Shown here: positions 4,346 through 61,139 of the stretch, in pieces | How the letters are laid out: each line of letters opens with the position of its first letter | How positions within the stretch are numbered: position 1 is the first letter of the stretch | DNA from: Gemmatimonadales bacterium | GTDB taxonomy: Bacteria; Gemmatimonadota; Gemmatimonadetes; Gemmatimonadales; GWC2-71-9 | DNA: 64,000 nt | NCBI GenBank assembly: GCA_035278885.1 | Contig: DATEIR010000004.1 | Coordinates: forward strand, 5,262 to 69,261 | Direction of reading: 5' to 3' | Translations under genes and position numbers: made by a program | The notes under the pieces: model-generated | What the model was told of the DNA's origin: nothing | The model's input: only the letters and a program-made list of their open reading frames with translations | Databases searched by the model: none

Positions 4346-4666
4346 ATGCACAAGATTCTCTTCCTGGCAGCGGCCGCGGCGACGATCGCGGCCTGCCACA
4401 ACCGGAACGAAGACCAGGCAGGCCCCGCGCCCAGCGCGGCCGACACCGCCGCGACCACGCACGTCATCGATTCAACCCGCACCGGCCCGCCGGGCACCGC
4501 CGGGCGTCCGCCAGCGGCCACCGTCACCCCCGACAGCGTGGGGATTCCCGACAGCGCGGCCCGGGTAGATACGGTCTCGACCAGTCCGTCGCCGACCTCG
4601 GTGCCCCAGGACACTTTGGGTCCCCGCACCGACAGCACGATGACCGACACGACGAGCTCCCGGTGA
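4346..4666 (+). CDS. small low-complexity Thr/Ser/Asp/Pro-rich lipoprotein
   Basis: GGGAG SD; MHKILFLAAAAATIAAC lipobox. Confidence 0.7.
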   Translation: MHKILFLAAAAATIAACHNRNEDQAGPAPSAADTAATTHVIDSTRTGPPGTAGRPPAATVTPDSVGIPDSAARVDTVSTSPSPTSVPQDTLGPRTDSTMTDTTSSR

Positions 4667-4830
4667 GGAGCGGCTTCCTGCTCGGCCTCGTCGCGGTACT
4701 CGCGGGCTGCGGTGGTGGCCACCGGGATCAACCCAGTCCGGAGGGCACGCCGGCCATGGACAGCGCGATGACGACGGTGCACGACAGCGGGAGCCCTCAG
4801 GACACCACGGTCAGCGATACCACGCCCTGA
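4663..4830 (+). CDS. 55-aa lipoprotein
   Basis: GTG overlaps upstream TGA; MRSGFLLGLVAVLAGC lipobox; it is the 3' end of track ORF 3766..4830. Confidence 0.6.
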   Translation: MRSGFLLGLVAVLAGCGGGHRDQPSPEGTPAMDSAMTTVHDSGSPQDTTVSDTTP

Positions 4831-4899
4831 AGTCGCTTCGCAGGCGCTGGTGGTGAGCCGGAACAGGATGGACCTGTTCCGGCTCACTCGCTTATGCGC

Positions 4900-6303
4900 C
4901 TAGAAGTCGTACCAGTCCACGAACGCCGCTCGGCCCTCGGCCGTGTAGTCCACCTCCACCAGGGACGCGGCGTCTCTTCCGCGGCCCGCGGCGTAGCAGA
5001 TGCGCTGAATGGCCGAGCCGAGACGCTCCAGATGCCGGGCGGCCACCTCATCGCAGCCCTGCCAGGTCCATTCCCGCGGTGGACGCACCAGCTCGGCAAG
5101 CTCGTCCCGGAACTCCGGCGACACGAAGCGCGAGAGTCCGGGGGTGACCCCGCCGACCCTGCCGGACGTGATCTCCCGCAGCAGGTCCGGGATCGGCTGC
5201 GCCGGCGGGGGGCCGGAGGGCGGCGCCGAGATCATCTGCGGCGGCTGGAGGGCCGGCTCGAGAATCCCGGCGACCGCGAGGGTGATGGCCTCCGGCCGCG
5301 CCTCGGCCAGGTTGGCCAGCGCGATCACGGTGAGATTCTGCTCGGGGTAGCGCTGGATGCTGGCCTTGAACCCCTGCCACGAGCCGGTGTGGCCGATGCG
5401 GGGGAAGCCGCGCTGCTGATCGAGCGACCAGCCGAAGCCGTAGGGATAGGTGCCGCCATCATTGAGCCGCACCGGCGTCCAGCTCTGCCGGAGACCGTCG
5501 GCGCCGGGGAAGCGGAGGTGGTTCAACCCGACCGCCCAACGGGCCAGGTCCAGCACCGTGAAATAGAGCGCGCCGTCGGCGGTGGTGTTGAGCTTCGGGG
5601 CCACCCACTCCTGGTGCTGCAGCCGTCCCTCGACCAGCCGATAGCCGTCGGCGCGGTTGGGGACGATGTCGCTCTCCGAGATGATGCGGGCGGTACGCAT
5701 GCCCAGCGGTTCGAACACCTGTGCGCGGAGCAGGTCACCGTAGAAGGTGCCGGTGATCCGATGGATGATGACGCCGAGCAGCACATAGCCGGTGTTGCTG
5801 TAGCTCCAGCGCGCGCCGGGCTCGAACCGCGGCGGCAGTCCGGAGGCCAGGCGCACCAGCTCGTCCTCGGTGTAGTCGTGCCGGTAGTCGAGCGTGCTGT
5901 CGGCGTAGTCGGGGATGCCCGACGTGTGGGTGAGGAGGTGTCGCACCGTGACCCGCCGCCATGCCGGCGGTCCTTCGGGCAGCCAGCGGCTGATCGGATC
6001 GTCGAGCCGAAGGCGACCTTCCTGGGCCAGCCGGAGCACCAGGGCCGAGGTGAACTGCTTTCCTACCGAGCCGGACTGGTACACGGTGCTGTCGGCGGCG
6101 GGCACGTGGTGCTCGACGTTGGCCTCGCCCCAGCCTCGCGCGAGGAGCAGGCTGTCGCCCCGGAGTACCGCGAGGGAGAGTCCGGGAATGCGCTGCCGCG
6201 CGACTTCACTACGCACATAGCGGTCGACCGAATCGAGCGGAGCAGTCACGGAGGGCGCCTGCGGCGCGGCTATGAGGAGAAGAGAGAGCAGCAACGGCGG
6301 CAT
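4900..6303 (-). CDS. serine hydrolase, beta-lactamase/AmpC-like (S12)
   Basis: SVGK (SxxK), YSN, LLTHTSG, HTG motifs; signal peptide MPPLLLSLLLIAA. Confidence 0.9.
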   Translation of the reverse strand: MPPLLLSLLLIAAPQAPSVTAPLDSVDRYVRSEVARQRIPGLSLAVLRGDSLLLARGWGEANVEHHVPAADSTVYQSGSVGKQFTSALVLRLAQEGRLRLDDPISRWLPEGPPAWRRVTVRHLLTHTSGIPDYADSTLDYRHDYTEDELVRLASGLPPRFEPGARWSYSNTGYVLLGVIIHRITGTFYGDLLRAQVFEPLGMRTARIISESDIVPNRADGYRLVEGRLQHQEWVAPKLNTTADGALYFTVLDLARWAVGLNHLRFPGADGLRQSWTPVRLNDGGTYPYGFGWSLDQQRGFPRIGHTGSWQGFKASIQRYPEQNLTVIALANLAEARPEAITLAVAGILEPALQPPQMISAPPSGPPPAQPIPDLLREITSGRVGGVTPGLSRFVSPEFRDELAELVRPPREWTWQGCDEVAARHLERLGSAIQRICYAAGRGRDAASLVEVDYTAEGRAAFVDWYDF

Positions 6304-6306
6304 GGA

Positions 6307-6335
6307 TTGACTTTCGGTATTTCTTCGGTTACGAT
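6307..6335 (+). promoter_or_regulatory. sigma70-type promoter of the radical SAM gene with a TTCGGT direct repeat in the spacer
   Basis: TTGACT (6307-12), 17 nt, TACGAT (6330-35); spacer = TTCGGTatttcTTCGGT. Confidence 0.7.
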
Positions 6336-6361
6336 GGAGCGGGGTCTTCGGAGGATGCGCA

Positions 6362-7621
6362 ATGATACGGGTGCCGGATCTGGAGCAGAAGCTTGGCGCG
6401 CTCATGTCGCTGGCCGCGGCCGACCGCGAGGGACTGCCGCCGCGGCTCCGAAACGCCGGCAGTGTGGGCGCGCTCCGTCCGCTCAACATCCGGACCCTGC
6501 AAACCGGCCCGGGTGCGCGCACCTCGCTGTTGCGCATCCTCATGACCAACGCCTGCACCTTCAACTGTCACTACTGTCCCATGCGGCGGGATCGCAACAT
6601 GCCGCGCACGCTGCTCAAGCCCGAAGAACTGGTGCGCATCTTCCTCGATGCCCGCCGGAGGGGCTGGGTGCAAGGGCTCTTCATCACCACGGGCATTCCG
6701 GGGCGCCCGGTGCACGTCATGGACGATCTGATCCGCGCCCTCGAGCTGCTCCGCCGCACCCATCGCTTCGGCGGGTACATCCACGTCAAGCTGGTCCCGG
6801 GGGCGGAAACGGCCCAGATCGAGCGGGTCACCGCTCTTGCCAGTCGAGTCTCGCTCAACTTCGAGGCTCCCTGCGGCGCCAGTCTGGCGCGCATCGCGCC
6901 GGACAAGAGCTTCGACACCACGCTGGGCGATTTCGAGCAGGTCCGCCGGCTGGTGGTGCATGAGCGGCAGGAGCGGTCCCACGGTCGTCCCGTCGATCCG
7001 CTGCACCCGGGCGGCGCGTCGGGCATGACCATGCAGTTCGTGGTCGGCGCCAGCCCGGACACCGACCAGGGCATCCTCTCCACGGTCAGCCGGCTGCGGG
7101 CCGCTGGCGGCGTGCACCATGCGCATTTCAGTGCCTTCCGGCCCATCAGCGACACCCCGATGGAGCACGCGCCGGCCACCCCGGTGCTGCGGGAGCACCG
7201 CCTCTACCAGGCCGAGCATCTGCTCCGCACCTATGGCTTCGGGGCAGACGAGGTCGTCTACGGACCCGAGGGCAATCTGCCCCTCAATGTCGATCCCAAG
7301 AGCGCCTGGGCCCTGTCCCATCCCGAGCGATTCCCGGTCGAGGTCACCACGGCCTCGTCGGAGGAGCTGCTGCGAGTCCCCGGCATCGGGCCCGTCGCCG
7401 CCGGCCGTATCGTCGAGCAGCGCGCCGGCACCAGGTTTCGCGGGCTCGCCGATCTCGCCAAGCTTGGCGTGGTCACCACGCGTGCGGGCGGCTTCCTGAC
7501 GCTGCGGGGCCGACGGCTGCAGACCGCGCGATGGACGGAGCAGCTCGGGTTCTGGGCTCCCGAAGACGAGGTCGGCACCCACCACGTGGTCTACAGCGTC
7601 AGTCCCGGCACCTTCCGCTGA
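6362..7621 (+). CDS. putative DNA modification/repair radical SAM protein with helix-hairpin-helix (TIGR03916-like)
   Basis: CTFNCHYC (CxxxCxxC), REHRLYQA, DPKSAWAL, ELLRVPGIGP HhH. Confidence 0.88.
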   Translation: MIRVPDLEQKLGALMSLAAADREGLPPRLRNAGSVGALRPLNIRTLQTGPGARTSLLRILMTNACTFNCHYCPMRRDRNMPRTLLKPEELVRIFLDARRRGWVQGLFITTGIPGRPVHVMDDLIRALELLRRTHRFGGYIHVKLVPGAETAQIERVTALASRVSLNFEAPCGASLARIAPDKSFDTTLGDFEQVRRLVVHERQERSHGRPVDPLHPGGASGMTMQFVVGASPDTDQGILSTVSRLRAAGGVHHAHFSAFRPISDTPMEHAPATPVLREHRLYQAEHLLRTYGFGADEVVYGPEGNLPLNVDPKSAWALSHPERFPVEVTTASSEELLRVPGIGPVAAGRIVEQRAGTRFRGLADLAKLGVVTTRAGGFLTLRGRRLQTARWTEQLGFWAPEDEVGTHHVVYSVSPGTFR

Positions 7622-7624
7622 TCC

Positions 7625-7647
7625 CGGCCGGGGTACTCGCCCGGCCG
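7625..7647 (+). terminator. hairpin after the radical SAM gene
   Basis: CGGCCGGG-N7-CCCGGCCG inverted repeat; no clear U-tract. Confidence 0.4.
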
Positions 7648-7661
7648 CCTATCTTCAATCC

Positions 7662-8936
7662 ATGCATGTGATCGTCGTGGGAGCCGGTCTCGCCGGGTTG
7701 TCCGCCGCGGGCGTTCTTCTGGACCGGGGCTGCGCGGTCACGGTGCTCGAGGCGCGGGATCGGATCGGCGGGCGAGTGTACCCGGCCGGCACCGCAGCTG
7801 GAGTGCCGGTCGAGCTGGGTCCGGAGTGGCTCTCCGACGACGGCGAGCTGCACCGCCTCCTGACCGGGGCCGGGGTCCGGCTGGTGCCGTCTCGGGGAGC
7901 GCGCTGGCGGCGGCGCGAGGGCCGGTGGGAGAACCAGGACGACCTGGCCGAGCGCAACGCCGAGCTGGTCGAGCGGATCCGGAAGCTCCCGGGCTCCGAC
8001 CACACCCTGGTGGACGCGCTCGCGGAGTGCTGCGCCGACATGTCTGACGACGACCGCGCTCGGCTGCTCGGCTACGTGCAGGGATTCCACGCCGCGGACC
8101 CCGCGACGTTGAGCGCCCGGTGGCTGGCGGAAGTCGAGGCCAAGGAGCCGGCCGAAGACTCGGACCTCCGCTCACTCGACGGGACAGCCCCGGCGCTGCA
8201 CGCGCTGGCGACCGCGCCGGTAAAGGCGGCGGTACGCCTCGGCGCCGAGGTCGCGGGCATTCGCTGGGCACCCGGACGAGTCGAGGTTCAAGTCCGCGGC
8301 GCACACGAGGCGCTCGTGGGCGATGCCGCGGTGGTGACCGTTCCGCTGCCGATCCTGCGCGAGCTACCGATCACCCCCGAGCTTCCCGAGCTCGCCGAGG
8401 CGGCCGCGCTGCTCCGGATGGGGCATGTGGTCAAGCTGGTGGTCCGCTTTGCCGAGCCGTTCTGGGCCGACCTCGTGCCCGGCGGCCCGATGCTCTTCCT
8501 TCAAGTCCCCGGCACGCCTCTGCCGGTGTGGTGGACCGCGCCGAAGGACGCTCCGCTGCTCACCGGCTGGGCCGGCGGCCCTGCCGCGGAGCGCCTGGCC
8601 GGCACGCCGGACGACGAGCTGCTGCGTCTGGCGGTCGGGTCGCTCGCGGCGGGGCTGGGCGTCGGGGAGGACCAGGTGAAGCGGCAGGTCCGGGAGCACC
8701 GGTGGCACGACTGGAGCTCGGATCGGTTCACCCGGGGCGCGTACAGCTACGTCGGCGTCGGGGGCACCCGGGCGCACGAGGTGCTGTCGCGCCCGGTGGC
8801 GCGAACCCTTTATTTCGCCGGCGAAGCCACCTGCGGCGAGGGCCTCAATGCGACGATGGAGGGCGCCCTCCGTTCCGGCCGCCGTGCGGCCGCCCAGCTT
8901 TTATCGAATCCAGCACCCGGCGCTGCTCGGGGGTGA
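7662..8936 (+). CDS. flavin monoamine oxidase family FAD-dependent oxidoreductase
   Basis: VVGAGLAGL, EARDRIGGR, GAYS, FAGEAT..MEGALRSG. Confidence 0.9.
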   Translation: MHVIVVGAGLAGLSAAGVLLDRGCAVTVLEARDRIGGRVYPAGTAAGVPVELGPEWLSDDGELHRLLTGAGVRLVPSRGARWRRREGRWENQDDLAERNAELVERIRKLPGSDHTLVDALAECCADMSDDDRARLLGYVQGFHAADPATLSARWLAEVEAKEPAEDSDLRSLDGTAPALHALATAPVKAAVRLGAEVAGIRWAPGRVEVQVRGAHEALVGDAAVVTVPLPILRELPITPELPELAEAAALLRMGHVVKLVVRFAEPFWADLVPGGPMLFLQVPGTPLPVWWTAPKDAPLLTGWAGGPAAERLAGTPDDELLRLAVGSLAAGLGVGEDQVKRQVREHRWHDWSSDRFTRGAYSYVGVGGTRAHEVLSRPVARTLYFAGEATCGEGLNATMEGALRSGRRAAAQLLSNPAPGAARG

Positions 8937-17471: not shown

Positions 17472-19094
17472 TCAGCGTGCGGTCGGCATGCGACGCAGAT
17501 CGGCCAGCAAGGCGTGGGGCGAGACCGGGCCGCCGAGAAATTCCTCGACCACCTCGCGAGTGGGACGCTCCAGGCCATAGCGATAGAGCCGCGCCGCGAC
17601 CCAGCGATACCAGCCGGAGTCGCCGCGGGTGAAATCGCCATGCCGCATCCGGGTGCGCTGGCGGATGGCCGCGATCACGATGGCGCCGGCGGCGTAGTTC
17701 ATCATGTATCCGGGCTCGTCCACCAGCTGCCCGCGCATGGCCCACCAGGCGAGCTCGGGGTGTGCGCGGATGTGCAGGTAGTCCTGGGTGAGACGCCCCC
17801 AGACCAGGTTGGGATCGGCCGCCGGATCGCGCAGCATCCGGAGCTCGAAGAGCGCCCACGTCATGTCGAGCAGGATCGCGCCGTACCGCCCGCGGAGCCC
17901 GTCGGCGAGCGGCACCGAGTCGCCCAGCCAGCGCTGCTGCCAGGCCGGCTCGTACACCTCGAGCGCGATGAAATCGGCCACCGCCTCGGTGAAGGGATCG
18001 GCATCGGGCCAGTCGGTGAACGCGGGACGGGTGCGGATGGCAGCCAGGTGGATGGCGTGGCCGGTCTCGTGGAGCAGCTCGTTCAGGTTGTCCAGTCCGC
18101 CGGTTCGGTAGGTGGCGAAGACCCAGGGCTCGATCGGCCGGCGCCCGCCGAAGGTGGTGAAGGCCACCGGCGTTTTCCCGTCGCGCGGGGCGAGGTCGTA
18201 GTGGACGCGGAGCGCCCCGAGGTCGGCGCCGAGCGCGCGGTACACCGAATCGTTGAGTCGGGTGAGCCGCTCCAGGGGAATGCGCGGGCCCAAGACGCGG
18301 CTCGCGCGTCCGGTTTCGTAGTACCAGTCCCACGGCTCGATCAGCGCCGAGGGCGTCACGTCGCGCCAGGTCTCCAGGATCGCGACCAGCCAGCGCTCCA
18401 GCGAGTCCGGCTCGATCCCGGTCGCGCGCGCCTGAGCCACGGCAGGCAGCTCTCGCCCGCGGCTACGCTCCGCCTCCAGCGCGATGAGCCGGCGGTACGG
18501 GCTTCCCGGTCCGTTGTCGGCATTCATGCTGCGCCAGACCGGTGCCAAGGCGAGGAAGCGGCGGCGCCGCCGGGTGGGATCCTCGTCGCGGCCGAGGCCG
18601 CCCAGCAGGGTGAGCCGGTCCGCCGTGTCACCATCCACCACGAGATGGGCCTGGGCCCAGCCGTAGCAGGCATAGATGCGGGCCTTGAGCGAGTCGGCTC
18701 CCCCGGGCAGCGAGGCGGAATCGTACCGACAGTCCGGCGCCGCAGTCGCGCCGGTGGTATCGGGTGCGGGCGCCGCGCCCAGGTCGCGCGCCAGGGTCCG
18801 GCGCATCACGCCGAGGGCGCGGGCATCCTCGGCGCCCAGGGTGGCCGAGTCCACGGCCGCCAGGCGCGTGGCGAGGCGCGCGCGCAGCTGGTCGTAGCGT
18901 CCCACCAGCAGCGGGCGCGTGGTCCCCTCCGGAGCGGCGGAGGCGCCCGACGCGTCCAGCACGTCGATCCGGTCGCGCAGGTCGCGGGTGTCCAGGTAGA
19001 GCGACTCCGCGGGCGCGACCGCCGCGGGCGCGGGCGGCGACGGGCTGCCGCACCCGATCGCGAGGATGACGGGCAGCAGGAGCGCCGCACGCAT
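17472..19094 (-). CDS. M3/M2-like gluzincin metallopeptidase lipoprotein
   Basis: HETGHAIH plus downstream FTEAVAD; YMMNY; AIGC lipobox. Confidence 0.7.
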   Translation of the reverse strand: MRAALLLPVILAIGCGSPSPPAPAAVAPAESLYLDTRDLRDRIDVLDASGASAAPEGTTRPLLVGRYDQLRARLATRLAAVDSATLGAEDARALGVMRRTLARDLGAAPAPDTTGATAAPDCRYDSASLPGGADSLKARIYACYGWAQAHLVVDGDTADRLTLLGGLGRDEDPTRRRRRFLALAPVWRSMNADNGPGSPYRRLIALEAERSRGRELPAVAQARATGIEPDSLERWLVAILETWRDVTPSALIEPWDWYYETGRASRVLGPRIPLERLTRLNDSVYRALGADLGALRVHYDLAPRDGKTPVAFTTFGGRRPIEPWVFATYRTGGLDNLNELLHETGHAIHLAAIRTRPAFTDWPDADPFTEAVADFIALEVYEPAWQQRWLGDSVPLADGLRGRYGAILLDMTWALFELRMLRDPAADPNLVWGRLTQDYLHIRAHPELAWWAMRGQLVDEPGYMMNYAAGAIVIAAIRQRTRMRHGDFTRGDSGWYRWVAARLYRYGLERPTREVVEEFLGGPVSPHALLADLRRMPTAR

Positions 19095-20503
19095 CACGGG
19101 GCTCCGGTGAGCGCCTTCATGAGCAGGTAGTTGAACTGGACGCCCTGATAAAACGCTTCCGCCAGCACTCGCTCGTCCCGGCCGTGCGCCCGATCTTCGT
19201 CGATGTCGATGAAGACACCTGACACGCCGTAGACGGGGACGCCGGCCCTCCGGAACCGGATACCATCGGTCGTCCAGGGGTCCATCACCGGCAGCACGAT
19301 CACGTCGGGCCACAGCGCGTGGGTGGCCGCCTCCACCGCGGACATGACGTCGGGGTTGAGCGGCGACTCGGGCGCCTCCTCCGGGAGCGCCCCCGCCGGG
19401 TCGCCCTTTATGGTGACGTGGATGGCGCTGTCGCCCACGACCCGGGCGAGGGTATCCAGGATCGCCGCCACGGACTCGCCCGGCAGCAGCCGGCACTGGA
19501 CGGTGGCCCGCGCCCGCTGGGGGAGAGCGTTCTCCGCGACCCCCGCCTCCAGCATCGTGGCGACGCAGGTGTTCCGCATCGAGGAGTTGTACATCGGCGT
19601 CTCACTCACTCGGGCTATCGCGGCGCTGTCTGCGCGGCCGGCCGCTATGGCCTGCAGGTCGTGCCCAGACTCGCCGCCGATCTGCCCGCCGAGGCGGTCG
19701 AAGAAGTTGCGGGTCGTCTCCGTGAGCCGCACGGGAAAGGCGTACGCGGCCAGCCTGTCGAGCCCGCGCGCGAGGGTATAGATGGTGTTGCCCGGCTGCG
19801 GCATCGAGCTATGGCCGCCCGGCCCGGTGACCTCCAGCAGGTAGGTGGCGTAGATCTTCTCGCTGGTCTGCACCGGGTTGCGGAGCCGCCGGCCGTGCTC
19901 CATCTGCCCGCCCGCGGCATCGAGGTTGATCACGTAGGCGGCATCGATCCACTCGCGCCGGTTCGCCAGCAGCCAGGCGGCACCGTTCGCGTCGCCTCCC
20001 TCTTCGTGGTCGGTGAGCGCCACGATGATGTCGCGATCCGGGACGTACCGCTCGCGCCGGAGCCGGACCAGATTGGTCACCAGATCGGCCGCCTCGTCCT
20101 TGATATCGATCGTGCCTCGGCCGTAGAAGTACCCATCCTGCTCCGTGAGCTTGAACGGCTCCATCGACCAGTCCTCCCGTCTTGCTTCGACCACGTCGAG
20201 GTGGGCCAGGAAGAGGATCGGTTTCGCCTTGCCACGCCCGCGCAGCCGGACCACGAGGTTCTGATTCCGCGGGCGTGGCCCGGCGAGTTGCACGTCGCGG
20301 GCGGGAAAGCCGGCTGCGGTGAGGCGCCGCGCGAGCGCGCGCGCCGCCCGGGTGGCGCCCGAGTCCTGGGTGGTGTTGATCGCCACCAGCTCGGCCAGGA
20401 TCTCCCGGGCCATCCGCCGGTCGGCCTCGGGAGGCGCCTGCTGGGCGGCCAGGCCGGCGGGAAGCAGCAGCAGGGTGGCGAACACCAGACGTCGGACGGT
20501 CAT
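19094..20503 (-). CDS. M20/M25/M40 family metallo-hydrolase, secreted
   Basis: AHLDVV, YGRGTIDIK, DHEEGG, GGHSS, AHGRDER. Confidence 0.9.
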   Translation of the reverse strand: MTVRRLVFATLLLLPAGLAAQQAPPEADRRMAREILAELVAINTTQDSGATRAARALARRLTAAGFPARDVQLAGPRPRNQNLVVRLRGRGKAKPILFLAHLDVVEARREDWSMEPFKLTEQDGYFYGRGTIDIKDEAADLVTNLVRLRRERYVPDRDIIVALTDHEEGGDANGAAWLLANRREWIDAAYVINLDAAGGQMEHGRRLRNPVQTSEKIYATYLLEVTGPGGHSSMPQPGNTIYTLARGLDRLAAYAFPVRLTETTRNFFDRLGGQIGGESGHDLQAIAAGRADSAAIARVSETPMYNSSMRNTCVATMLEAGVAENALPQRARATVQCRLLPGESVAAILDTLARVVGDSAIHVTIKGDPAGALPEEAPESPLNPDVMSAVEAATHALWPDVIVLPVMDPWTTDGIRFRRAGVPVYGVSGVFIDIDEDRAHGRDERVLAEAFYQGVQFNYLLMKALTGAP

Positions 20504-23234: not shown

Positions 23235-23633
23235 TCAGGGCGCCGTGCCGGTAATCTCGATCCGGTATTCGGCGATGTCCTGCAGGGCGTACGTGCCTCG
23301 CGCGGCCGCCTCGACCACCCTGGCCGAGTAGTCGTCGGCCCGGGTCCGGTCGGGCACCCAGATCCGCACCAGCTTGCCGCCGCGAAGCGCGCCGCTCACC
23401 ACGATCCGGAGCGGCGCCGTACCCACCGACGAGGCCTCCGTGCGATAGCTCAGGGCGGTCACCGAGTCCACCGTGCCGCCCGAGACCTCGACCAGCACGA
23501 TTCCGTCGTTGTCCGCCGGCGTCTGGAGCACCAGGTCGAGCGGTCCCGACAACGGCGCCGACAGATCGGAGCCGCCGCCGCAGGCGCTCACACCCAGCAG
23601 CGCCGCGAGCAGCAGCGCGCGCGCCTGCCTCAT
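23235..23633 (-). CDS. hypothetical beta-rich lipoprotein (possibly cohesin-like)
   Basis: VSAC lipobox; ATGA overlap with the S8 gene; alternating hydrophobic beta strands. Confidence 0.7.
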   Translation of the reverse strand: MRQARALLLAALLGVSACGGGSDLSAPLSGPLDLVLQTPADNDGIVLVEVSGGTVDSVTALSYRTEASSVGTAPLRIVVSGALRGGKLVRIWVPDRTRADDYSARVVEAAARGTYALQDIAEYRIEITGTAP

Positions 23634-26600
23634 TCGCCCTCCCGATCGAGCAGCGCCAGGTAGTCACCCACGTCGAACCGTCCGTTCCGGTTGCCCGCCT
23701 GGTCGAGGGCGCGCACCTGTTCCGGCGTCAGGTGGGGCTTGCCGAGAAGGTCGCCCGCGGCCACGCCGGCGGGCGGTTGGGGAATGAAGCGCGCCGTCAC
23801 TGCCGTCTCGGCGCCCACCGTCACGGCGCAGGACGGCGCGGTGCCGCAGGCGGGAACGCCGCTCCAGCCGGCGAACAGCGAGCCGGCCTCCGCGGTGGCC
23901 GTGAGCGTCACGACGCCGCCGAGCGCAACCTCGATCCGGCAACCTGACGCCGCGGCCACGCCTTCGCTGACCGTACAGGCGAGCCCCTCGCCGATGCCCG
24001 GTCCGCTCGCCACGCTCCCGCTCCCGGTGCCCGCGCCGGCGATCCTGAGCCCGGCCGTCTTCAGGGTGAAGGTCGCCGTCACCGCCCGGGCGGCGTCGAG
24101 GGTCACCACGCACTCGCCCGTCCCACTGCAGTCCCCGGTCCAGCCCGCGAAGGCGGAGCCCGACGAGGCCGTGGCAGCAAGGGTCACACTGGCTCCGCCC
24201 GAGTACACGGCCGCGCAGCTGCCGCTGGCCGCCCCGGCGGATATGGCGCAGGCGATGCCGCCGGGGCTCGCGCTAACGGCGCCGGAGCCGTCGCCCGCGC
24301 CAGCCACCGTGAGCGTCATCGGCTCGAGCGCGAAGGCCGCGCCGACGGTGATCGCCTGGCTCACCGTCACGACGCAGGGCGCCGTCCCGGTGCAGGCTCC
24401 CGTCCAGCCGGTAAAGGTCGAGCCCGCCGAGGGCGTGGCGGTGAGGGTGACCGTAGCGCCCGCAGGGAAGCCGGCCGCGCAGACTCCGGATCCGGTCCCG
24501 CCCGCCAGCGCGCAGTCGATCCCGGCGGGGTCGGCGGTCACCCGGCCCGCGCCGGTGCCGCTTCCCCCGACCGTGACGGTGAAGGGCACCAGGTCGAAGG
24601 TGGCGGAAACCGAGCGCGCCTGATCGAGCGTGACGGTGCAGTCGCCCGTGCCGGTACAGGCCCCGCCCCAGCCGCTGAAGCGCGAGCCCGCCGCGGCCGT
24701 CGCCTGCAGGGTGACCACGGTGCCCGCCGGGTACGCGGCGGAGCAGGTCCCCGTCGCGACGGCGGCCGCCGCCTGACAGCTCAACGGCGGCTGCGCACCC
24801 GGGGCCGTGGCGATCGTCCCGCCGCCCTCGCCGCCCGCCGACACGCCAAGCGCGAAGCTTCTGGACACGAAGCGGGCGGTGACGGTCCTGGCCTGGCTCA
24901 TGACCACGGTACACGGGCCCGTCCCGGAACAGGCCCCGGTCCAGCCATCGAACACCGCGCCGATCGAAGGTGTCGGGGTGAGGGTGACGGTCGTGCCCGC
25001 GGTATAGGTCGCGGTGCAGGCTCCACTCACGCTCCCGCCGGCCGAGGCGCAGGCGATGGCGGGGCTCAACCCTGCCTGGCTCGCGATGCTGCCGCTGCCC
25101 GCACCCGCGCCGGTCAGGTGCAGGGCGTAGGTCGCGACGTCGAAGCCGGCCGTGACCGTACGATTCTCCTCGGTGGTGAGCTGACAGCTACCGGTCCCGG
25201 TGCAAGCCCCCGACCAGCCGGTGAACACCGACCCCGCGCCGGGAGTCGCGCTCAGCGTCACCGCGGTGCCGCTCTCGAACTGGGTGCTGCAGCTTCCGCT
25301 CGCGGCCCCCGCGGCAGCCGAGCAGGCGATGCCCGCCGGGGTGCTGCCCACGGTGCCCGCACCGCTACCCGCCCCGGCGACGGTCACCGTGACGCGGCGC
25401 GGCTGGGCCCCGAGCTGGACCAGCGCCGCGCGAAGGTTGGGGAAGGGCCCGACCGATTGCGTTGCGCCCCCGCTCTGAGGGGTCCCGGTGGTGCGGAGCA
25501 GGGTGACGAGGTCGTCGGGCGAGAGCGGCGTCCCCCGCGACCCCCGGTTGAAGCCCTGCACCGCGACCGCCGCGGCCGCCACCATCGCCGAGGCGCTCGA
25601 GGTGCCGGCGAAGGTGGCGGTATAGCGGGTGCCCCGGCTGCCTCCGTCGAAGAGGTCGCCGTATCCGGTGCTGGTGACGCAGCAGCCCCACGCCTGCAGG
25701 TCCACCCGGGAGCCGTAGCTGGAGAAGGAGGAGCGGGCGTGCGCCTGGGTGCCGGCCCCGACGATGATCGCGTCCGAGTCGAAGCGGCTCCGGTCGAAGC
25801 GCCCCAGGAAGTCGGGGCCGTCGAGATTCTCGTTGCCGTTCCCCGCCGCCTCGACGACGATGACTCCGGTCTGGGTGACGACCCGGATGGCGTCGAACAC
25901 CGCCGGGTCCCATTCGACCGGTACGAAGGTCTGCCCGCCGTGCGGTCCCACCGCCTGCTGTTCGATCAGCAGCACGTCGCCCGGGCCGAGCGCGGCGCCC
26001 GCCGCCGCGATCGCGGCGGGAAGATTGTAGTGCAGGGTGCCGGTCTCGACGGGCGAGATGACCCGGGTAGTGGCCGCCGACACCGCGCCGGTGACGCCGA
26101 AGGCGTTGGCGCGCCCGACCAGCATGCCGAGCACCGCGGTGCCGTGGTCGTCGGCGCAGAAGGGATTGCAGGTCCCGCCGAGGGACGCGCCGTCGAGCTG
26201 CAGGTCCTCATGGGTCAGGACCCACGAGTACTCGAGGTCGATCAGCTTGACCCCGGCGCCGTCGCCGCCGACCTGGGTCCGGGCGAAGCGGGCGTCGAAG
26301 CCGTCGGGCGCCGGGCCCAGGTAGCCCTGCCTGCCGGTGAAATCGGGCGAGGCGAGCTCCTTGTGACGACCCGGCGGCGGCGCCGGCGCCGGCGCCACAT
26401 ACGCCGTATCCACCTCGGCCAGGGCGTTGAGCTCGGCCAGGAGCCGGGGGAGGTCGGCGGCCTGGCCCACCTCCAGGCGGTGCCAGCTTCCCAGGCTGGG
26501 CAGCGGTCGGCGGGCGCGCAGGCGGGCGCCGCTTTCGAGCGACTGCAGGGTGATCGCGGGGACGTGGGCGAAGAGGGTGCGCAGCTGCGGCGAGCCGTGA

Positions 26601-48200: not shown

Positions 48201-50198
48201 ATGTATCCCAAGGTGTTAGCTCATCGCCGGCCCGCCGGCATTCTGCTGGCAGGACTGGCGATCGCCGGCTGCGGAGGCGGACGCACCGAAGCGCCCGCGA
48301 CCGCCCCCACCCCTGCCGCGGGTGCCGCGGCGCCGACGACCCGGGCCATGGAGGTGCCGCAACTCGTCGGCTTCGAGAAGGCGCTCGCCGCGGGCACCAG
48401 GCAGGCCAATGGCGAGCCCGGGCCCAAGTACTGGCAGCAGTGGGCGGACTACAAGCTGGAAGCCGAGCTCAATCCAGTGTCCAAGCGGCTCACCGGGCAC
48501 GGCACCATCCGCTACCAGAACCGCTCGCCCGACACCCTGGCCGTCGTCTACGTCCAGGTGCTGCACAACATCTTCGCGCCGGGCGCGCGTCATGACACGG
48601 ACGTTCCCTGGTCGGTCGAGGGCATGGACCTCGACAAGGTGGTGGCCCAGGGCCAGACCTTGACCACCGGGGGCGGCTCCGATGCGCCCGGATACCAGGT
48701 CGACGGAACCATCATGCGCGTGATTCTCCCGCACCCGATCGTCCCGGGCGGTAGCGCCGACTTCGAGTTCAACTGGCGTCTGCGGGTTCCGCCCGATGGG
48801 GCGCCGCGGGGAGGCCAGGACGGGGAGGTCTGGTACATCAGCTACTGGTACCCGCAGATGGCGGTCTATGACGACGTGAACGGCTGGCAGACCGACCAGT
48901 ACCTCGGGAACGCCGAGTTCTACATGGGGTACGGGAACTATGACGTGTCTCTCACCGTGCCGGCCGGCTGGCTGGTGACCAGCACGGGGCGGCTGCTCAA
49001 CCCCGACCAGGTGCTCACTGCCCAGACCCGGGCCCGGCTCGACTCTGCGCGGGCCGGCAGTGCGATCGTCCACGTGGTGAACGAGAGCGACCGCGGGGCG
49101 GGCACGGCGACGACGGCGGGCACCGACGGCAAGCTCACCTGGCACTATCGCGCGGAGAACGTGCGCGACGTTTCCTGGGCCACCTCGTCGAAGTACCTGT
49201 GGGACGCGACCACGGCCGCCGTCGGAGACGCCAACGGCGACGGCAAGCCCGACACCTCGACGGTCGAGTCGTTCTGGCGCCCTGAGGAGCGGCGCAACCA
49301 CTGGGATGAGGCGGCCCGCTATGGCCAGCACTCGATCCAGTTCTTCTCCCGGTATCTGTGGCCCTACGCCTATCCCCACATGACCGTGGTGGACGGGCCG
49401 ACGTCGTGCGGCGGCATGGAGTTTCCGATGATGACGTGCATCGGGGGCCAGTGGGACACGCTCAGCTTCTACGAGGTGGTGAACCACGAAATCGGGCACA
49501 TGTGGTTCCCCATGATGGTGGGCTCCGACGAGAAACGCTTCGCCTGGATGGACGAGGGATTCACCCAGTTCGACCAGTCCCAGGCGATGGACGACTTCTT
49601 CAAGGGGTACGACGACGAGGCGGAGAACCGGCAGCCCTACATCAACCTGGCGGTGGCCGGCGGCGAGGTGGAGCTGATGCACCACGGCGACCGCTACCCC
49701 AACTACAACGCCTACGGGACGGCGAGCTATTACAAGACCGCGACCGTGCTGGTGGCGCTCCGGGGCGTGCTCGGCCGGGAGCTGTTCCACAGGGCGTTCA
49801 CCGAGTACGGCCGGCGCTGGATGTACAAGCATCCGACGCCCTGGGACTTTTTCAATACCATCGAGGACGTGTCCGGACGGGATCTCTCCTGGTTCTGGCG
49901 GACCTGGTTCTTCGAGACCTGGAAGCTGGACCAGGCGATCGACACCGTCGCGGCGGTGGGAGACTCGCTGGAGGTGACCGTCTCCAACCGGGGCAAGGCG
50001 ATGATGCCGGTGCATCTGGTGGTGAGCCGGACGGACGGCAAGACCGACAGCCTCGACGTGCCGGTCAGCGTCTGGTTCGACGGCCGCAAGCGAACGACGG
50101 TCAAGGTGGCCAAGGAGCCCACGATCAAGGTCATCGAGATCGACCCGGCCCGCGACTTTCCCGACGTGGACCGCTCCAACGGGACCTGGCCCCGGTAA
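48201..50198 (+). CDS. M1 family metallopeptidase lipoprotein
   Basis: GGMEFP, HEIGH..WMDEG, YYK; IAGC lipobox. Confidence 0.92.
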   Translation: MYPKVLAHRRPAGILLAGLAIAGCGGGRTEAPATAPTPAAGAAAPTTRAMEVPQLVGFEKALAAGTRQANGEPGPKYWQQWADYKLEAELNPVSKRLTGHGTIRYQNRSPDTLAVVYVQVLHNIFAPGARHDTDVPWSVEGMDLDKVVAQGQTLTTGGGSDAPGYQVDGTIMRVILPHPIVPGGSADFEFNWRLRVPPDGAPRGGQDGEVWYISYWYPQMAVYDDVNGWQTDQYLGNAEFYMGYGNYDVSLTVPAGWLVTSTGRLLNPDQVLTAQTRARLDSARAGSAIVHVVNESDRGAGTATTAGTDGKLTWHYRAENVRDVSWATSSKYLWDATTAAVGDANGDGKPDTSTVESFWRPEERRNHWDEAARYGQHSIQFFSRYLWPYAYPHMTVVDGPTSCGGMEFPMMTCIGGQWDTLSFYEVVNHEIGHMWFPMMVGSDEKRFAWMDEGFTQFDQSQAMDDFFKGYDDEAENRQPYINLAVAGGEVELMHHGDRYPNYNAYGTASYYKTATVLVALRGVLGRELFHRAFTEYGRRWMYKHPTPWDFFNTIEDVSGRDLSWFWRTWFFETWKLDQAIDTVAAVGDSLEVTVSNRGKAMMPVHLVVSRTDGKTDSLDVPVSVWFDGRKRTTVKVAKEPTIKVIEIDPARDFPDVDRSNGTWPR

Positions 50199-50265: not shown

Positions 50266-52497
50266 ATGTCCCGGCTCCTGATCGTGGCCAACCGGCTCCC
50301 GATCACCGTCCGCCCCACCGACTCCGGGGTGGAGGTGGAGCGGAGCACCGGCGGCCTGGCGACCGGCCTGCTCCGCCCGCACGCGGAGGGCGACGGGTTG
50401 TGGATCGGCTGGTCCGGCGCCGCGCCGGAGACGCTGACCCCCTCGCAGCAGGACGCCCTCGACCGCGAGCTGGCCGATCAGCGGCTGGTCGGCGTCACCC
50501 TCTCCAGCGATCAGGTCAACCGCTACTACGAAGGCTTCTCCAACGGGGTCCTCTGGCCCCTGTTTCACTACCTGCTCGACCAGGTTCCCCTGCAGGTGAG
50601 CGGCTGGGACAGCTACGTCGAGGTCAACCAGCGCTTCGCCGACGTGGTCGCCGCGCAGTACCAGAAGGACGATCTGGTCTGGGTTCACGACTATCAGCTG
50701 CTCCTGCTGCCCGGGCTCCTCCGCCGCCGGCTGCCCGAAGCCCGGATCGGATTCTTCCTCCACATTCCGTTCCCCTCGGAGGAGCTCTTCCGCACCCTGC
50801 CGGCCCGGGCGCAGCTCCTCGAGGGGGTGCTCGGCGCCGACCTGGTCGGCTTTCACACGCCGGCCTACCTGCGGCACTTCGCCACGGCGCTGACCGACAT
50901 TCTCGGCCTCACGGTGGACATCGACCGGGTGCAGCTCCCCGGCCGTGAGGTCCGCCTGGGGGTCTTTCCGATGGGCGTAGACAGCGCCTCGTTCGACACG
51001 CTCGCCCGCGACCCGGCCGTCGAGGCCGAGGCGGAGGCGCTCCGCGGCGATGGAAGCGTGCGGATGCTGGTCGGGGTGGACCGGCTGGACTACACCAAGG
51101 GCATTCCCCGGCGGCTGCTGGCCTACGAGCGGATGCTGCAGAGCCACCCCGAGCTGCGGGAGAGGGTCCGGCTGGTGCAGGTGGCGGTGCCTTCGCGCAC
51201 CGGGGTCGAGGCCTATCAGGAGTACCGCTCCCTGGTGGACCAGCTGGTGGGGCGGATCAACGGCACCTTCGGCACGGCGCGCTGGGTCCCGGTCCATTAC
51301 ATCTTCCGCGCCCTCTCGGTGTCCGACCTGGTGGCGCTCTATCGCGCTGCCGACGTGATGGTGGTGACGCCCCTCCGCGACGGGATGAACCTGGTCGCCA
51401 AGGAATTCGTCGCGTCCCGGAGCGACGGCGACGGCGTGCTGGTGCTGAGCGAGTTCGCCGGGGCAGCATGGGAGCTGCCCGAGGCGGTGCTGGTGAATCC
51501 CTACGACACCGACGGCACCGCCGAGGGATTCTATCGGGCGCTGAGCATGGAGCCGGACGAGCGGAAGGCGCGGCTCGCACCGCTCCGGAACCGGGTGCGG
51601 ACCTTCGACGTGCACCAGTGGGTGAGCTCGTTCCTGGAGCAGCTCGAAGGGGTGTCCCGTCCGTCGGTGCGAACCGTGTCCCCCGCCGCGGGCGAGACCG
51701 CGCTCCGGGCCGAGCTGGTTCAGGCGCTCGAGCGCACCGAGGAGCTCCTGCTCCTGCTCGACTACGACGGGACCCTGGTCCCGTTCACCGCCACGCCCGA
51801 GCTGGCCCGCCCCGATGCCGGCCTGCTGACGCTCCTGCGCCGCCTGGCGGAACGACGCGACACCGAAGTGCACATCGTGAGCGGGCGGAGCCGGGAAGCG
51901 CTGGAGCAGTGGATGGGCACGCTGCCGGTCTGGCTTCACGCCGAGCACGGCTTCTGGTCCCGTCCCCGCGGCGCGCGCGACTGGGTGCCCGCCGCGGAGG
52001 TAGGCGGCTCCTGGCGCGAGCCGGTGCTGCACATCCTCCGCGACATCACCGCCCGCACCCCCGGATCGCTGATCGAGGTGAAGGCGGTGGCCATCGCCTG
52101 GCACTACCGGATGGCCGACCTGGAGACCGGCGCCCGCCGGGCCAACGAGCTCCGGCTGCACCTGAACCAGCTCCTCAGCAATCAGCCGGTGGAAATCCTG
52201 GCGGGCAACCGGGTGCTGGAGATCCGGCCGCACGGGATCCACAAGGGACGGATCGTGCCGCCGCTGCCGCCGGAGCGGCTGGCGCGGACCGCGGTAGTGG
52301 CGATCGGCGACGACCGCACTGACGAGGACCTGTTCGTCAGCCTGCCGCCCGAGGCGATCACCGTGCGCGTCGGTCCCGGGCCGACCCGGGCGCACTACCG
52401 GCTGGAGGGGACCGGAGCGGTGCGCGGCGTGCTGCAGCTCCTCGCCGACTCCGGGGTCCGGGCCGGTGCGGGCGCGCCGGAGCCAGCCTCCCGATGA
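50266..52497 (+). CDS. bifunctional trehalose-6-phosphate synthase/phosphatase (OtsA-OtsB fusion)
   Basis: [35 protein letters not shown] motifs DYDGTL and GDDRTDED. Confidence 0.95.
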
Positions 52498-58020: not shown

Positions 58021-58066
58021 CCTGCGCCACCTTGCCCCCTCGTCTCCTCGCCCCCTTCTTCCCCCC

Positions 58067-59188
58067 ATGCCCCGCATCGAGACCCTCGCCGTGCATGCCG
58101 GCCACGTCCCTGACCCGGGCACCGGCGCGGTGAGTCCACCGATCCACCTCTCCACCACCTTCGCGCGACACCCCGACGGGACGCTTCCGCAGGGATTTCT
58201 CTACGCCCGGAGCGACAATCCGAACCGCCACGCGCTGGAGGACGCCCTGGCATCCCTGGAAGGTGGGGCGGTGGCGCTGGCGTTCGCGTCGGGAATGGCG
58301 GCCACCACGGCCATCGTCCAGGCGCTCGCCGCGGGCGATCACGTCATCGCGCCGACCGACGCCTATTACGGCACGGCGAAGGTGCTGCGCGAGGTGTTCG
58401 GCCGGTGGGGATTGGCGTCCACCTTCGTCGACCTGACCGACGCGGCCGCGGTGCAGCGGGCCGTGACGCCGACTACCCGGCTGATCTGGGTCGAAACTCC
58501 GTCCAATCCCACTCTCGCGGTCACCGACATCGCCCGGATTTCCGCCATCGCGCGGGAGGCCGGTGCCTGGTGCGTCTGCGACAACACCTGGGCGACGCCG
58601 CTGCTGCAGCGGCCGCTCGAGCTGGGTGCGCACGCCGTGATGCACGCGACCACGAAATACCTCGGCGGCCACAGCGACGTGACCGGCGGGGCATTGATCC
58701 TGGGGGAAGCCGGCGAGCTGGCCGACCGGCTGCGAGTGATCCAGACCGTGGGCGGTGCGATTCCATCTGCCTTCGACTGCTGGCTGGTCCACCGCGGGAT
58801 CCGCACCCTGCCCTGGCGGATGCGGGGCCACTGCGACAACGCGGAGCGAGTGGCCGCCTTCCTGGCCGGTCATCCCCGGGTGGAGGCGGTTCACTACCCC
58901 GGGCTGCGCGGCGACCCGGGACACGCGGTGGCGCGCCGCCAGATGACCCGGTTCGGCGGGATGGTCTCGTTTCAGGTGAAGGGTGGGGCGGAGGCGGCGC
59001 TCGGTGTGGCATCGCGGGTCCGGCTCTTCACCCGGGCCACGAGTCTGGGCGGGCCGGAAAGCCTGATCGAGCATCGGGCCTCGGTGGAAGGACCCGAGTC
59101 CCGCACGCCTCCAGGGCTGCTCCGGTTGTCGGTGGGGTTGGAGCACGCCGACGACCTGGTCGAGGATCTCGGCCAGGCCCTCGGCTGA
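58067..59188 (+). CDS. PLP-dependent trans-sulfuration enzyme (cystathionine gamma-synthase/lyase family)
   Basis: YARSDNP, FASGMAA, ETPSNP, ATTKYLGGHSD, SLGGPESL, RLSVGLE. Confidence 0.93.
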   Translation: MPRIETLAVHAGHVPDPGTGAVSPPIHLSTTFARHPDGTLPQGFLYARSDNPNRHALEDALASLEGGAVALAFASGMAATTAIVQALAAGDHVIAPTDAYYGTAKVLREVFGRWGLASTFVDLTDAAAVQRAVTPTTRLIWVETPSNPTLAVTDIARISAIAREAGAWCVCDNTWATPLLQRPLELGAHAVMHATTKYLGGHSDVTGGALILGEAGELADRLRVIQTVGGAIPSAFDCWLVHRGIRTLPWRMRGHCDNAERVAAFLAGHPRVEAVHYPGLRGDPGHAVARRQMTRFGGMVSFQVKGGAEAALGVASRVRLFTRATSLGGPESLIEHRASVEGPESRTPPGLLRLSVGLEHADDLVEDLGQALG

Positions 59189-59198
59189 GGCGGAACGT

Positions 59199-59630
59199 CT
59201 AGTCGTTGTCCGGCTGGGCGGCGGTCAGGGCCTGAGGCTTGATGCGGCGGATCGCGCGCTTGGCGCCGGCGGCCACCTCGTCGTTGATATCCTCCTGCAT
59301 GACCTTGAGCAGCCTGGGCACCGCCGCCTCGGCGCCGGGGCCGATCTCGCCCAGCGCCACGGTCACCGGGAACCGCACCGCGGCGATCGGGTCGTCGAGG
59401 CTCTCGATCAGGGCGGGCACCGCGGCCGCGGCGGCGGGACCCATTCCGGAGATCTCGTAGGCGGCCGCGTTTCGAGTCTGCGGGGCCGGCGCCTTGAGGT
59501 CGGCAATCCACTCGCTCAGCGATCGCCCGTCGGAAACCGGCTCCTTCCCGGTGGCCGCCCCCTGGGCCGCGAGGGGCCCGGTGGCGAGCGTGAAGGCGAG
59601 GGCGGCGGAGCCGAGCGCACGAGTCAGCAT
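59199..59630 (-). CDS. secreted HEAT-repeat protein
   Basis: Signal peptide; AAVPALIESLDD..VR..ALGEIGP..AAVPRL. Confidence 0.75.
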   Translation of the reverse strand: MLTRALGSAALAFTLATGPLAAQGAATGKEPVSDGRSLSEWIADLKAPAPQTRNAAAYEISGMGPAAAAAVPALIESLDDPIAAVRFPVTVALGEIGPGAEAAVPRLLKVMQEDINDEVAAGAKRAIRRIKPQALTAAQPDND

Positions 59631-59756
59631 GTTTCCTCCAGAGTGGTCATCAGGGCGCCTCGGGCGCCATGCCGAAATATATCCCCCCCGGGAAACTTCC
59701 CCCGGGCCGATTCCGAAGTGGCAGCCGTGACCCATTCACCTCCACCGACCGGACCC

Positions 59757-61139
59757 ATGATCCGACTTCGCCCCGTCCTGGCGCTCCCCATCCTCCTGAT
59801 CACCTTCGCGGTTGCTCCACTGGCGGCCCAGACCCGGTCGGCGCCGAGGGACTACCGCGCCGTAGCCGACAGCCTCATCCGGGCCGCCACCGGCGACAGC
59901 GCCGCCTACCGGCGACTCGGCGATCTGGTGGATCGGTTCGGCCACCGGCTGGCCGGGTCGCCCAGCCTGGAGGCCGCGATCGACTGGATCCTCGCCGAGA
60001 TGCGGAAGGACGGACTGAGCAACGTGCGGGGCGAGCCGGTGATGGTGACGAGCTGGGTCCGGGGCCAGGAGTCGGTGAACCTGGTCTCGCCCCGCCGTAT
60101 GCCGCTCCGCATGCTCGGACTCGGCGGAAGCGTGAGCACTCCGCCGGACGGGATCACCGCCCGGGTGCTGGTGGTCTCCAGCTTCGACGAGCTGGAGCGG
60201 CGTCGGGCCGAAGCCCGAGGGCGGATCGTGCTGTTCGACGCGCCGTTCACCGAGTACGGCGAGACCCGGCGGTACCGCACCGACGGGGCGGTCGCCGCGG
60301 CGCGGGCCGGCGCGGTCGCCTCGCTGATCCGGTCGGTCGCGCCGTTCTCGATCCGGAGCCCGCACACCGGACGGGTCTCCTACCAGGCCGACGCGGCCAG
60401 GATCCCCGCCGCGGCGCTCAGCAACGAGGACGCCATGATGCTCCACCGGATGCAGGACCGGGGAGACAGCGTGGTGGTCACCCTCAGGATGCAGGCCCAT
60501 CAGCTGCCCGACGCCCAGTCCCGCAACGTGGTGGCGGAAGTCGTCGGACGGATCGAGCCCGACGAGGTGGTCGTGCTGGGTGGGCATATCGACAGCTGGG
60601 ACGTAGGCCAGGGCGCGATGGACGACGGCGGCGGGTCGGTGGCGGCATGGGAGGCGGTCCGGCTGATCCGGAAGCTGGGGCTGCATCCTCGTCGCACCAT
60701 TCGCGTGGTGCTCTGGACCAACGAGGAGAACGGCGTGGAGGGCGGCGCGGCTTACCTGGAGCGGCATCGTGATTCCCTGACCAGCCACGTGATGGCGATG
60801 GAATCCGACGGCGGGGTGTTCAACCCCCGGGGCGTGCTGGTCGCCGGGACACCCCAGGCGGTCGAGGTGGTGCGGCAGGTCGGCCAGCTGCTGCGCCCGA
60901 TCGGCGCCGACCGGGTCACCAAGGTGGACAGCAGCCCCGAGGCCGATATCGAGCCGATGGTGACGCTCGGGGTACCGGGCGTCGGGCTCGACGTGGACGC
61001 CTCGCGCTATTTCTGGTATCACCACAGCGACGGCGACACCCTCGATAAGCTCGACCCGGCGGAGATGGGTCGCTGCGTCGCCCTCATGGCCGTCATGGCC
61101 TACGTGATCGCCGACCTGCCGGTCCGGCTGCCCAGTTAG
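59757..61139 (+). CDS. M28 family peptidase (carboxypeptidase Q-like) with PA domain
   Basis: GGHIDSWD, GAMDDG, NEENG, ESDGG, YHHSDGD. Confidence 0.92.
   Translation: MIRLRPVLALPILLITFAVAPLAAQTRSAPRDYRAVADSLIRAATGDSAAYRRLGDLVDRFGHRLAGSPSLEAAIDWILAEMRKDGLSNVRGEPVMVTSWVRGQESVNLVSPRRMPLRMLGLGGSVSTPPDGITARVLVVSSFDELERRRAEARGRIVLFDAPFTEYGETRRYRTDGAVAAARAGAVASLIRSVAPFSIRSPHTGRVSYQADAARIPAAALSNEDAMMLHRMQDRGDSVVVTLRMQAHQLPDAQSRNVVAEVVGRIEPDEVVVLGGHIDSWDVGQGAMDDGGGSVAAWEAVRLIRKLGLHPRRTIRVVLWTNEENGVEGGAAYLERHRDSLTSHVMAMESDGGVFNPRGVLVAGTPQAVEVVRQVGQLLRPIGADRVTKVDSSPEADIEPMVTLGVPGVGLDVDASRYFWYHHSDGDTLDKLDPAEMGRCVALMAVMAYVIADLPVRLPS

Follow-up and report, generated by a model that had tools for sequence, protein, structure and literature searches.

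In a 64,000-nucleotide stretch of the genome of a Gemmatimonadales bacterium (assembly GCA_035278885.1, contig DATEIR010000004.1; below, the window), exported proteins carry many copies of the tripeptide D-[ST]-[AVLIMT]. A sequence-only reading of this DNA had taken the tripeptide for the general O-glycosylation sequon of Bacteroidota, and it does match that sequon as given in the literature. Across the genome, predicted exported proteins contain it about twice as often as expected whereas cytoplasmic proteins contain it at chance level, and a system described only for Bacteroidota is therefore likely to work in part of a second phylum. Judging from these sequence patterns, Gemmatimonadales probably run a Bacteroidota-type general protein O-glycosylation. 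Of the system proposed earlier, the motif excess on the export side stands, and candidate glycosyltransferases of the GT-C fold (a DUF2723 and a YfhO-type protein) were found; the glycan itself is a prediction, and the lineage is narrower, Gemmatimonadales. The organism had been placed correctly in Gemmatimonadota: it belongs to Gemmatimonadales, in agreement with the relatives of an NPP phosphodiesterase of the window (46 of the best 80 loci titled Gemmatimonadota) and of YfhO (at least seven of the 120 matches listed titled 'Gemmatimonadales bacterium', identity 69-73%).

The source genome (G000; 4.10 Mb, 187 contigs, GC content 70.2%, completeness 90.5%) was compared with other genomes sampled at 50-400 kb each. 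Sequons are given below as observed over expected, the expectation being exact for shuffling the mature region of each protein and the intervals coming from a bootstrap over proteins. Genes, signal peptides and topology were called by a purpose-written heuristic, not SignalP, and the exported and cytoplasmic classes are likewise heuristic; misassignment would mostly drag ratios towards 1. The first gene calling gave 3751 genes and the improved version, with alternative starts, 3712. A first classifier, which let exported proteins leak into the cytoplasmic set and was weak on low-GC genomes, returned 1011/532.9 = 1.90x for exported and 1505/1357.8 = 1.11x for cytoplasmic proteins. With the improved classifier that replaced it, 682 exported proteins hold 1515 sequons against 762.5 expected (1.99x, 1.84-2.15) and 1942 cytoplasmic proteins 1208 against 1216.1 (0.99x); the enrichment thus persists after correction for composition. 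Sequons are borne by 71% of the 437 predicted exported proteins of at least 150 aa, and excluding the densest 10% of 645 proteins gives a ratio of 1.61x, while masking linker-like stretches gives 1.99x. Twin-arginine (Tat) substrates, six proteins only, hold 4/5.5.

Control motifs in exported proteins gave 0.77x (E-[ST]-x), 1.05x (N-[ST]-x), 0.99x (D-[AG]-x), 0.92x ([ST]-D-x) and 0.98x (N-x-S/T). Among 3439 tripeptides tested for export-specific excess, the top five are DSA, DSL, ADS, DSV and DST, and DS followed by a hydrophobic residue ranks first of all dipeptide-plus-hydrophobic patterns in this genome (1/400), in other Gemmatimonadales (1/342) and in Bacteroidia (1/364). The third position after DS favours A (2.8), T (2.6), L (2.5), V (2.2), I (2.0), M (1.6) and S (1.5), with every charged or aromatic residue below 1. 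The excess is mostly due to Ser, with DS-x at 2.65x versus 1.36x for DT-x, and in exported proteins Ser occupies 14.1% of D-x-hydrophobic sites, the share being 4.0-4.9% at E-x-hydrophobic, D-x-polar and cytoplasmic D-x-hydrophobic sites. We infer that selection has favoured the gain and retention of glycosylation sites, chiefly at Ser, and that the motif excess is its trace. Sequon serines are encoded by TCN and AGY codons at 440:280 versus 5937:4468 in the background; since both families are used near the background proportion, the pattern lies at the protein level, and a DNA-level cause was rejected. N-glycosylation by STT3/PglB was rejected too, on the N-x-S/T ratio and on a profile search of the genome for STT3 (PF02516), which gave no match.

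The sequon excess is confined to the extracytoplasmic side, within single proteins too. The catalytic motif of Ser/Thr kinases is found in about 70 proteins of the genome, and 38 of these also have a membrane helix followed by a sizeable C-terminal portion. By heuristic topology prediction, the kinase side of these 38 holds 14/29.3 = 0.48x and the part past the helix 181/66.0 = 2.74x; in 14 two-helix sensors, likewise predicted, the loop holds 15/6.8 = 2.2x and the tail 1/9.0 = 0.11x. Acidobacterial kinases of matching build (29 recovered from 30 loci, 9 without a helix dropped, 20 counted) show 9/18.7 on the kinase side and 21/26.9 = 0.78x past the helix. For family f7 of the same class as the source genome, five genomes gave 0-2 Pkinase matches each, too few for this comparison.

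Lineage also separates the orthologues of NPP, whose counts come from related and hence non-independent sequences: 46 from Gemmatimonadota hold 207/52.0 = 3.98x, 14 from Acidobacteriota 13/13.2 = 0.99x, and three from Rhodothermales 4/3.3. All 66 aligned sequences share Asp D185 of NPP, and a sequon is formed after it in 35 of 47 Gemmatimonadota rows versus 2 of 14 acidobacterial rows. At sequon columns where acidobacteria have REA or DGY, the letters vary (DSA, DSM, DSL, DTA) though the motif is kept. Mapping of sites on AlphaFold models, proposed earlier as a check, covered NPP only (predicted local distance difference test, pLDDT, 94.9). Its nine sequon Ser/Thr residues (102, 113, 168, 184, 212, 219, 252, 287 and 403) include two in mid-helix; another two lie in loops, a short helix holds one, and the other four are taken up below.

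The signal, clear in the order Gemmatimonadales, belongs to that order and not to the whole phylum. Exported proteins of four other Gemmatimonadales genomes hold 117/52.7 = 2.22x (1.72-2.78), and DS-x reaches 38/19.1 in the plasmid proteins of Gemmatirosa kalamazoonensis. Within the same class, family f7 gives 109/85.7 = 1.27x (0.87-1.77) over four genomes, driven by a few dense proteins, and family f6 gives 32/57.4 = 0.56x (0.28-0.85) over two; other classes of the phylum (f10, f12) give 14/12.3 in a small sample of 13 proteins. Five Bacteroidia genomes pooled reach 129/87.1 = 1.48x (1.11-1.87). Rhodothermales (G037, L091-L110), which belong to the same Fibrobacteres-Chlorobi-Bacteroidetes (FCB) superphylum, were rejected as a high-GC positive control, with no enrichment at 88/94.8 = 0.93x (0.84x with the first classifier). 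A hint from Ignavibacteria and Calditrichota (9/4.1) comes from seven homologous, non-independent YfhO C-terminal stretches. Equal enrichment in unrelated high-GC bacteria, named earlier as a possible refutation, is seen neither in the sampled Acidobacteriota (47/56.7) nor in the small samples of Shinella (GC 66%, 7/14.0) and Nonomuraea (72%, 9/8.6).

Some genomes of the phylum depart from this distribution. In f6 (G104 and G127; L231-L240) exported proteins are sequon-depleted, DS-x ranking 278 of 283, and each genome has YfhO plus a tandem pair of DUF2723 genes whose motifs are intact; glycosylation is possibly avoided there, or the sequon altered. Enrichment beyond Gemmatimonadales is hinted at by locus L267 of another class (G060), where sequons number 38, 13 and 11 in three large proteins (2.0-2.4x expected). 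In f7, genome G107 is otherwise hardly enriched but encodes a predicted exported protein of 688 aa (L138:14043-16109) with 20 sequons versus 4.1 expected, which suggests that some envelope proteins may still be served by the system.

Taken unselected, the 17 predicted exported proteins of the window hold 49 sequons versus 21.6 expected (2.27x, bootstrap 1.41-3.51) and the 25 cytoplasmic ones 12 versus 11.3. Every earlier hand count was reproduced on recount, including the nine sequons of NPP, to which all nine of its D[ST] dipeptides conform, and the near absence of sequons from cytoplasmic proteins (radical SAM 1; FAD oxidoreductase, trans-sulfuration enzyme and ATP-grasp 0 each). For the protein called an M3-like peptidase the count of eight holds and the label is weak, with no Pfam match and TIGR02290 below its cut-off (E 6.5e-6, 25 bits versus 562). 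The statement that the window contains no glycosyltransferase was mistaken, because a GT20 enzyme, unrelated to protein glycosylation, is encoded there. Hand-picked examples are best cases: a DegP-like protein has 1 sequon versus 1.7 expected, and an exported 1040-aa protein with five divergent InlB B-repeats (23630-26752, minus strand) has 1 versus 3.6. The latter may have been acquired recently, or it may sit at the surface beyond the reach of the system. The 106-aa lipoprotein has the highest sequon density among the 145 proteins of the genome with at least six sequons and is a candidate for its densest substrate. Outside the window, a predicted lipoprotein of 442 aa with 14 sequons (C35:12969-14297, minus strand) adjoins valS, four genes from the DUF2723 gene. 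An Rfam search of the window gave no match.

Table 1. Proteins of the window and candidate enzymes elsewhere in the genome (positions without a contig label are window positions).
Feature	Position	Strand	Sequons	Basis
Predicted lipoprotein, 106 aa	4346-4666	+	8	Recount; no Pfam/NCBIfam family
Exported serine hydrolase (beta-lactamase fold)	4900-6303	-	4	Recount, profile search
Radical SAM protein and flavin amine oxidoreductase (cytoplasmic contrast)	6362-8936	+	1 and 0	Profile search
NPP phosphodiesterase lipoprotein (lipoprotein signal), 417 aa	10964-12217	-	9	Recount, profile search
Predicted lipoprotein, weak M3-peptidase similarity	17472-19094	-	8 (1.7 expected)	8/10 D[ST] conform
Exported M20/M28 peptidase	19094-20503	-	3 (1.2 expected)	Recount
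Exported Ig-like and LVIVD protein	28940-30997	+	8; 8/9 D[ST] conform	Recount, profile search
M1 peptidase lipoprotein	48201-50198	+	6 (2.2 expected)	Profile search
Fused trehalose-6-phosphate synthase/phosphatase (GT20), sole glycosyltransferase found in window	50266-52497	+		Profile search
Cys/Met PLP enzyme (cytoplasmic contrast)	58067-59188	+	0	Profile search
Exported M28 peptidase	59757-61139	+	5 (1.5 expected); 5/7 D[ST] conform	Profile search
DUF2723 (PF11028), copy 1	C35:6593-8881			Profile search, above cut-off (E 1.6e-45 and 1.1e-43 for the two copies)
DUF2723 (PF11028), copy 2	within C179:14715-17045 frame			Profile search, above cut-off
YfhO-type protein (PF09586)	C27:3393-5726			Pfam, E 6e-12, 45.2 bits versus cut-off 28.5

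With this in mind, one may outline how such a system would operate. A polyprenol-phosphate sugar synthase, for which GT2 genes flanking yfhO are available, would make a lipid-linked sugar, probably mannose, which would be flipped across the membrane; a periplasm-facing GT-C enzyme would then place the sugar on the Ser or Thr of Asp-(Ser/Thr)-(Ala/Leu/Val/Thr/Ile/Met) once the protein has crossed the inner membrane. The search for GT-C homologues proposed earlier turned up two candidates for this step. The first transfer has about an even chance of being performed by the TMEM260-like DUF2723 protein of contig C35; the YfhO-type protein is a possible agent, though an unlikely one, and its role might rather be to lengthen the glycan or to act on a different polymer of the envelope. 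DUF2723 is favoured because the Bacteroidota core begins with mannose (PMC12871550) and because YfhO, predicted as the Bacteroidota oligosaccharyltransferase, is absent from Porphyromonas gingivalis (bioRxiv 2026.07.27.740950), which does glycosylate proteins (PMC10897501).

Strong DUF2723 matches occur in 36/36 Gemmatimonadota searched, and of the remaining FCB genomes searched all but a 0.5-Mb one have them; elsewhere, matches are weak in 4/7 Acidobacteriota, and among 14 control genomes only Bacteroides thetaiotaomicron has one. The C35 protein matches human TMEM260 (9RQL; E 6e-16) over both the membrane and the luminal part, and its D37, H52 and D512 align with TMEM260 D52, H67 and D441 (positions counted on the PDB chain, consistent with the preprint numbering), each of which is essential, with D441 acting as catalytic base (bioRxiv 2026.03.17.711096). 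D37 and H52 are found in 38/38 alignment rows and D512 in 36/38, two rows ending early, and no row covering the motifs WD..E, HPPG, R[ED]RDY and GDNDT deviates from them. A quick tree, from which two of 38 loci (G202, G194) were dropped because the anchor pattern was not found in them, groups the proteins by lineage. By this homology the G000 protein is a putative protein O-mannosyltransferase, and one may speculate that the extra Arg residues of RERDY read the sequon Asp. In Prevotella intermedia, DUF2723 and YfhO proteins were both detected in the inner membrane, the DUF2723 protein being itself listed as glycosylated at DTL (PMC10897501 supplement). For P. gingivalis, DUF2723 is unconfirmed, as the label was not found in four supplementary files of PMC11436796.

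The YfhO-type protein is modelled with a GT-C fold (pLDDT 90.8), its top Foldseek matches being AftD (E 2e-10), AglB (8e-7), ArnT and PglB with TM-scores of only 0.3-0.46; a sequence search of the PDB gave no match. Its gene lies in a run of an rpoN-like gene, so labelled on our own reading of the sequence, followed by GT2, GT4, an LPG-synthase-like membrane protein, yfhO, GT2 and dapF; the tightly packed part from GT2 to dapF (C27:394-7262) is a candidate lipid-linked sugar module. Pfam finds YfhO in 112/121 genomes of the phylum, and the G000 protein as query finds it in 21/21 Gemmatimonadota searched, including all nine Pfam misses; an apparent YfhO loss in f7, considered as a natural experiment, was accordingly discarded. 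YfhO is also present in 78/81 Bacteroidia (G242 included), and a Gemmatimonadota/FCB YfhO profile matches a YfhO from Bacteroidia over the full length (E 6e-126); a 1.3-Mb genome of Bacteroidia gave a match for DUF2723 but none for YfhO. Other glycosylation matches in the source genome comprise eight PMT_2-type, two Wzy_C and five Wzx proteins.

Several points weigh against general O-glycosylation in Gemmatimonadales. The evidence is sequence statistics, glycosylation of the sites is predicted, and no glycan or glycopeptide has been observed; protein localisation depends on our own heuristic, and the other genomes were only sampled. The Thr half of the motif is weak (DTA 1.17, DTV 1.10, DTI 0.98), Gemmatirosa plasmids give only 61/41.6 = 1.47x (0.95-2.06), and eight Bacteroidetes NPP orthologues hold 8/7.7. 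The positive control is uneven, single Bacteroidia genomes giving 2.06, 2.17, 1.51, 0.68 and 0.93; given this unevenness in Bacteroidia and related genomes, missing enrichment does not show that the system is absent, and enrichment is good evidence where present. In Bacteroidota, too, enrichment is reported for nearly all families and not for every species (PMC12871550). DUF2723, with motifs intact, and YfhO both occur in f6, f7 and Rhodothermales without clear enrichment, so that their presence does not explain the pattern, and the TMEM260 sequon is unrelated to D-S/T-x (bioRxiv 2026.03.17.711096). A Bacteroides-type LFG locus (metG, wzx, glycosyltransferases) was not found in the 90.5% complete genome; a metG candidate lies on C72 without wzx beside it, and the wzx matches are on C180, C14, C70, C62 and C162. 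That locus is not phylum-wide in Bacteroidota, being dispersed, for example, in P. gingivalis (PMC12871550).

One may ask whether the motif could be selected without any sugar, through another extracytoplasmic modification or recognition (phosphoglycerol, phosphoethanolamine, periplasmic phosphorylation, a chaperone or protease signal). From the statistics one learns only that the motif is selected outside the membrane, and the candidate transferases do not co-vary with enrichment; still, the preferences at the third position, the bias towards Ser and the exclusion of Glu agree with the motif measured in Bacteroidota, DS-hydrophobic leads in Bacteroidia as well, and both groups have DUF2723 and full-length YfhO homologues, which makes this improbable. 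Asp and Ser are favoured at helix starts in any case, and the remaining four of the nine NPP sites are helix starts, a further point against glycosylation; Pro and Ala are moreover enriched before the sequon Asp. N-capping may therefore position some NPP sites, as far as the model goes. It cannot account for the pattern by lineage and compartment, and a structural or compositional bias, including one from Asp/Ser/Thr-rich exported proteins in a 70% GC genome, is largely refuted and very improbable: the expectation already contains each protein's composition, acidobacterial NPPs and kinases of equal fold, the small samples of Shinella and Nonomuraea, and cytoplasmic proteins show no excess, two NPP sites are mid-helix, and linker-like masking leaves the ratio in place. 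Just as improbable is that the excess merely survives from an FCB ancestor whose system no longer works here. Patchiness across FCB lineages is what gains and losses would leave, but the excess is larger than in pooled Bacteroidia, extends to the 38 membrane kinases, a family near-absent from the five sister-family genomes, and is kept while its letters turn over, with the DUF2723 catalytic residues intact.

If general O-glycosylation in Gemmatimonadales is real, the Bacteroidota signature in a second phylum would put the origin of the system in an early ancestor of FCB, and an unrecorded glycoproteome is predicted in a common environmental lineage. We suggest only tentatively that sequon-directed O-glycosylation is an ancestral FCB trait, strongly selected in Gemmatimonadales, with DUF2723 as the human-homologous initiating O-mannosyltransferase that reads Asp-Ser/Thr-hydrophobic. 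The missing transferase is narrowed to genes common to both phyla, two of them directly testable. Among the papers listed by a literature search, mostly without subscription journals, none was on protein glycosylation in Gemmatimonadota. A 2025 review calculated this ratio for GTDB genus representatives; its available text names Bacteroidota and Fibrobacterota and lacks the word 'Gemmatimonad', and a Gemmatimonadota signal may be present in its Fig. 2A (PMC12871550). The signature is thus robust and bears on the open transferase question, though part of it may already stand in a published figure.

Among known enzymes, TMEM260 (PF11028) is a human protein O-mannosyltransferase (PMC10214176) whose three essential residues are kept in the G000 protein. 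It differs in recognising a long IPT-domain signature and not D-S/T-x (bioRxiv 2026.03.17.711096), and its R264, Y267 and R355 are unmapped in the G000 protein, R355 aligning to a Tyr beside the invariant R[ED]RDY. The YfhO-type candidate resembles its family in Pfam match, GT-C fold and co-encoded GT2, GT4 and flippase-like membrane protein. YfhO-family enzymes glycosylate proteins in streptococci, where PgtC2 and PgfM1/M2 act on Ser/Thr-rich disordered regions without a sequon (PMC12041528); those of Bacillus subtilis and Listeria are teichoic-acid glycosyltransferases, unlike the protein target proposed here.

Among bacterial O-glycosylation systems, that of Bacteroidota is described as the only one to have a defined motif; the transferase behind it is not yet identified (PMC12871550; bioRxiv 2026.07.27.740950). 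The pattern in Gemmatimonadales differs from it in phylum, in the commonest third residue (Ala here, Leu in Bacteroidota), in a stronger Ser bias and in that no metG-wzx locus was found in the source genome. Bacteroidota glycoproteomes prefer L/I/V/T/A/S at the third position and show a Ser bias (PMC12871550), and the two lineages share the tripeptide, Ser over Thr, the rejection of Glu at -1 and the third-position set, the comparison of Asp at -1 and of Ser over Thr being statistical, not biochemical. In both, the motif is limited to non-cytoplasmic regions, and DUF2723 and YfhO homologues are common to the two.

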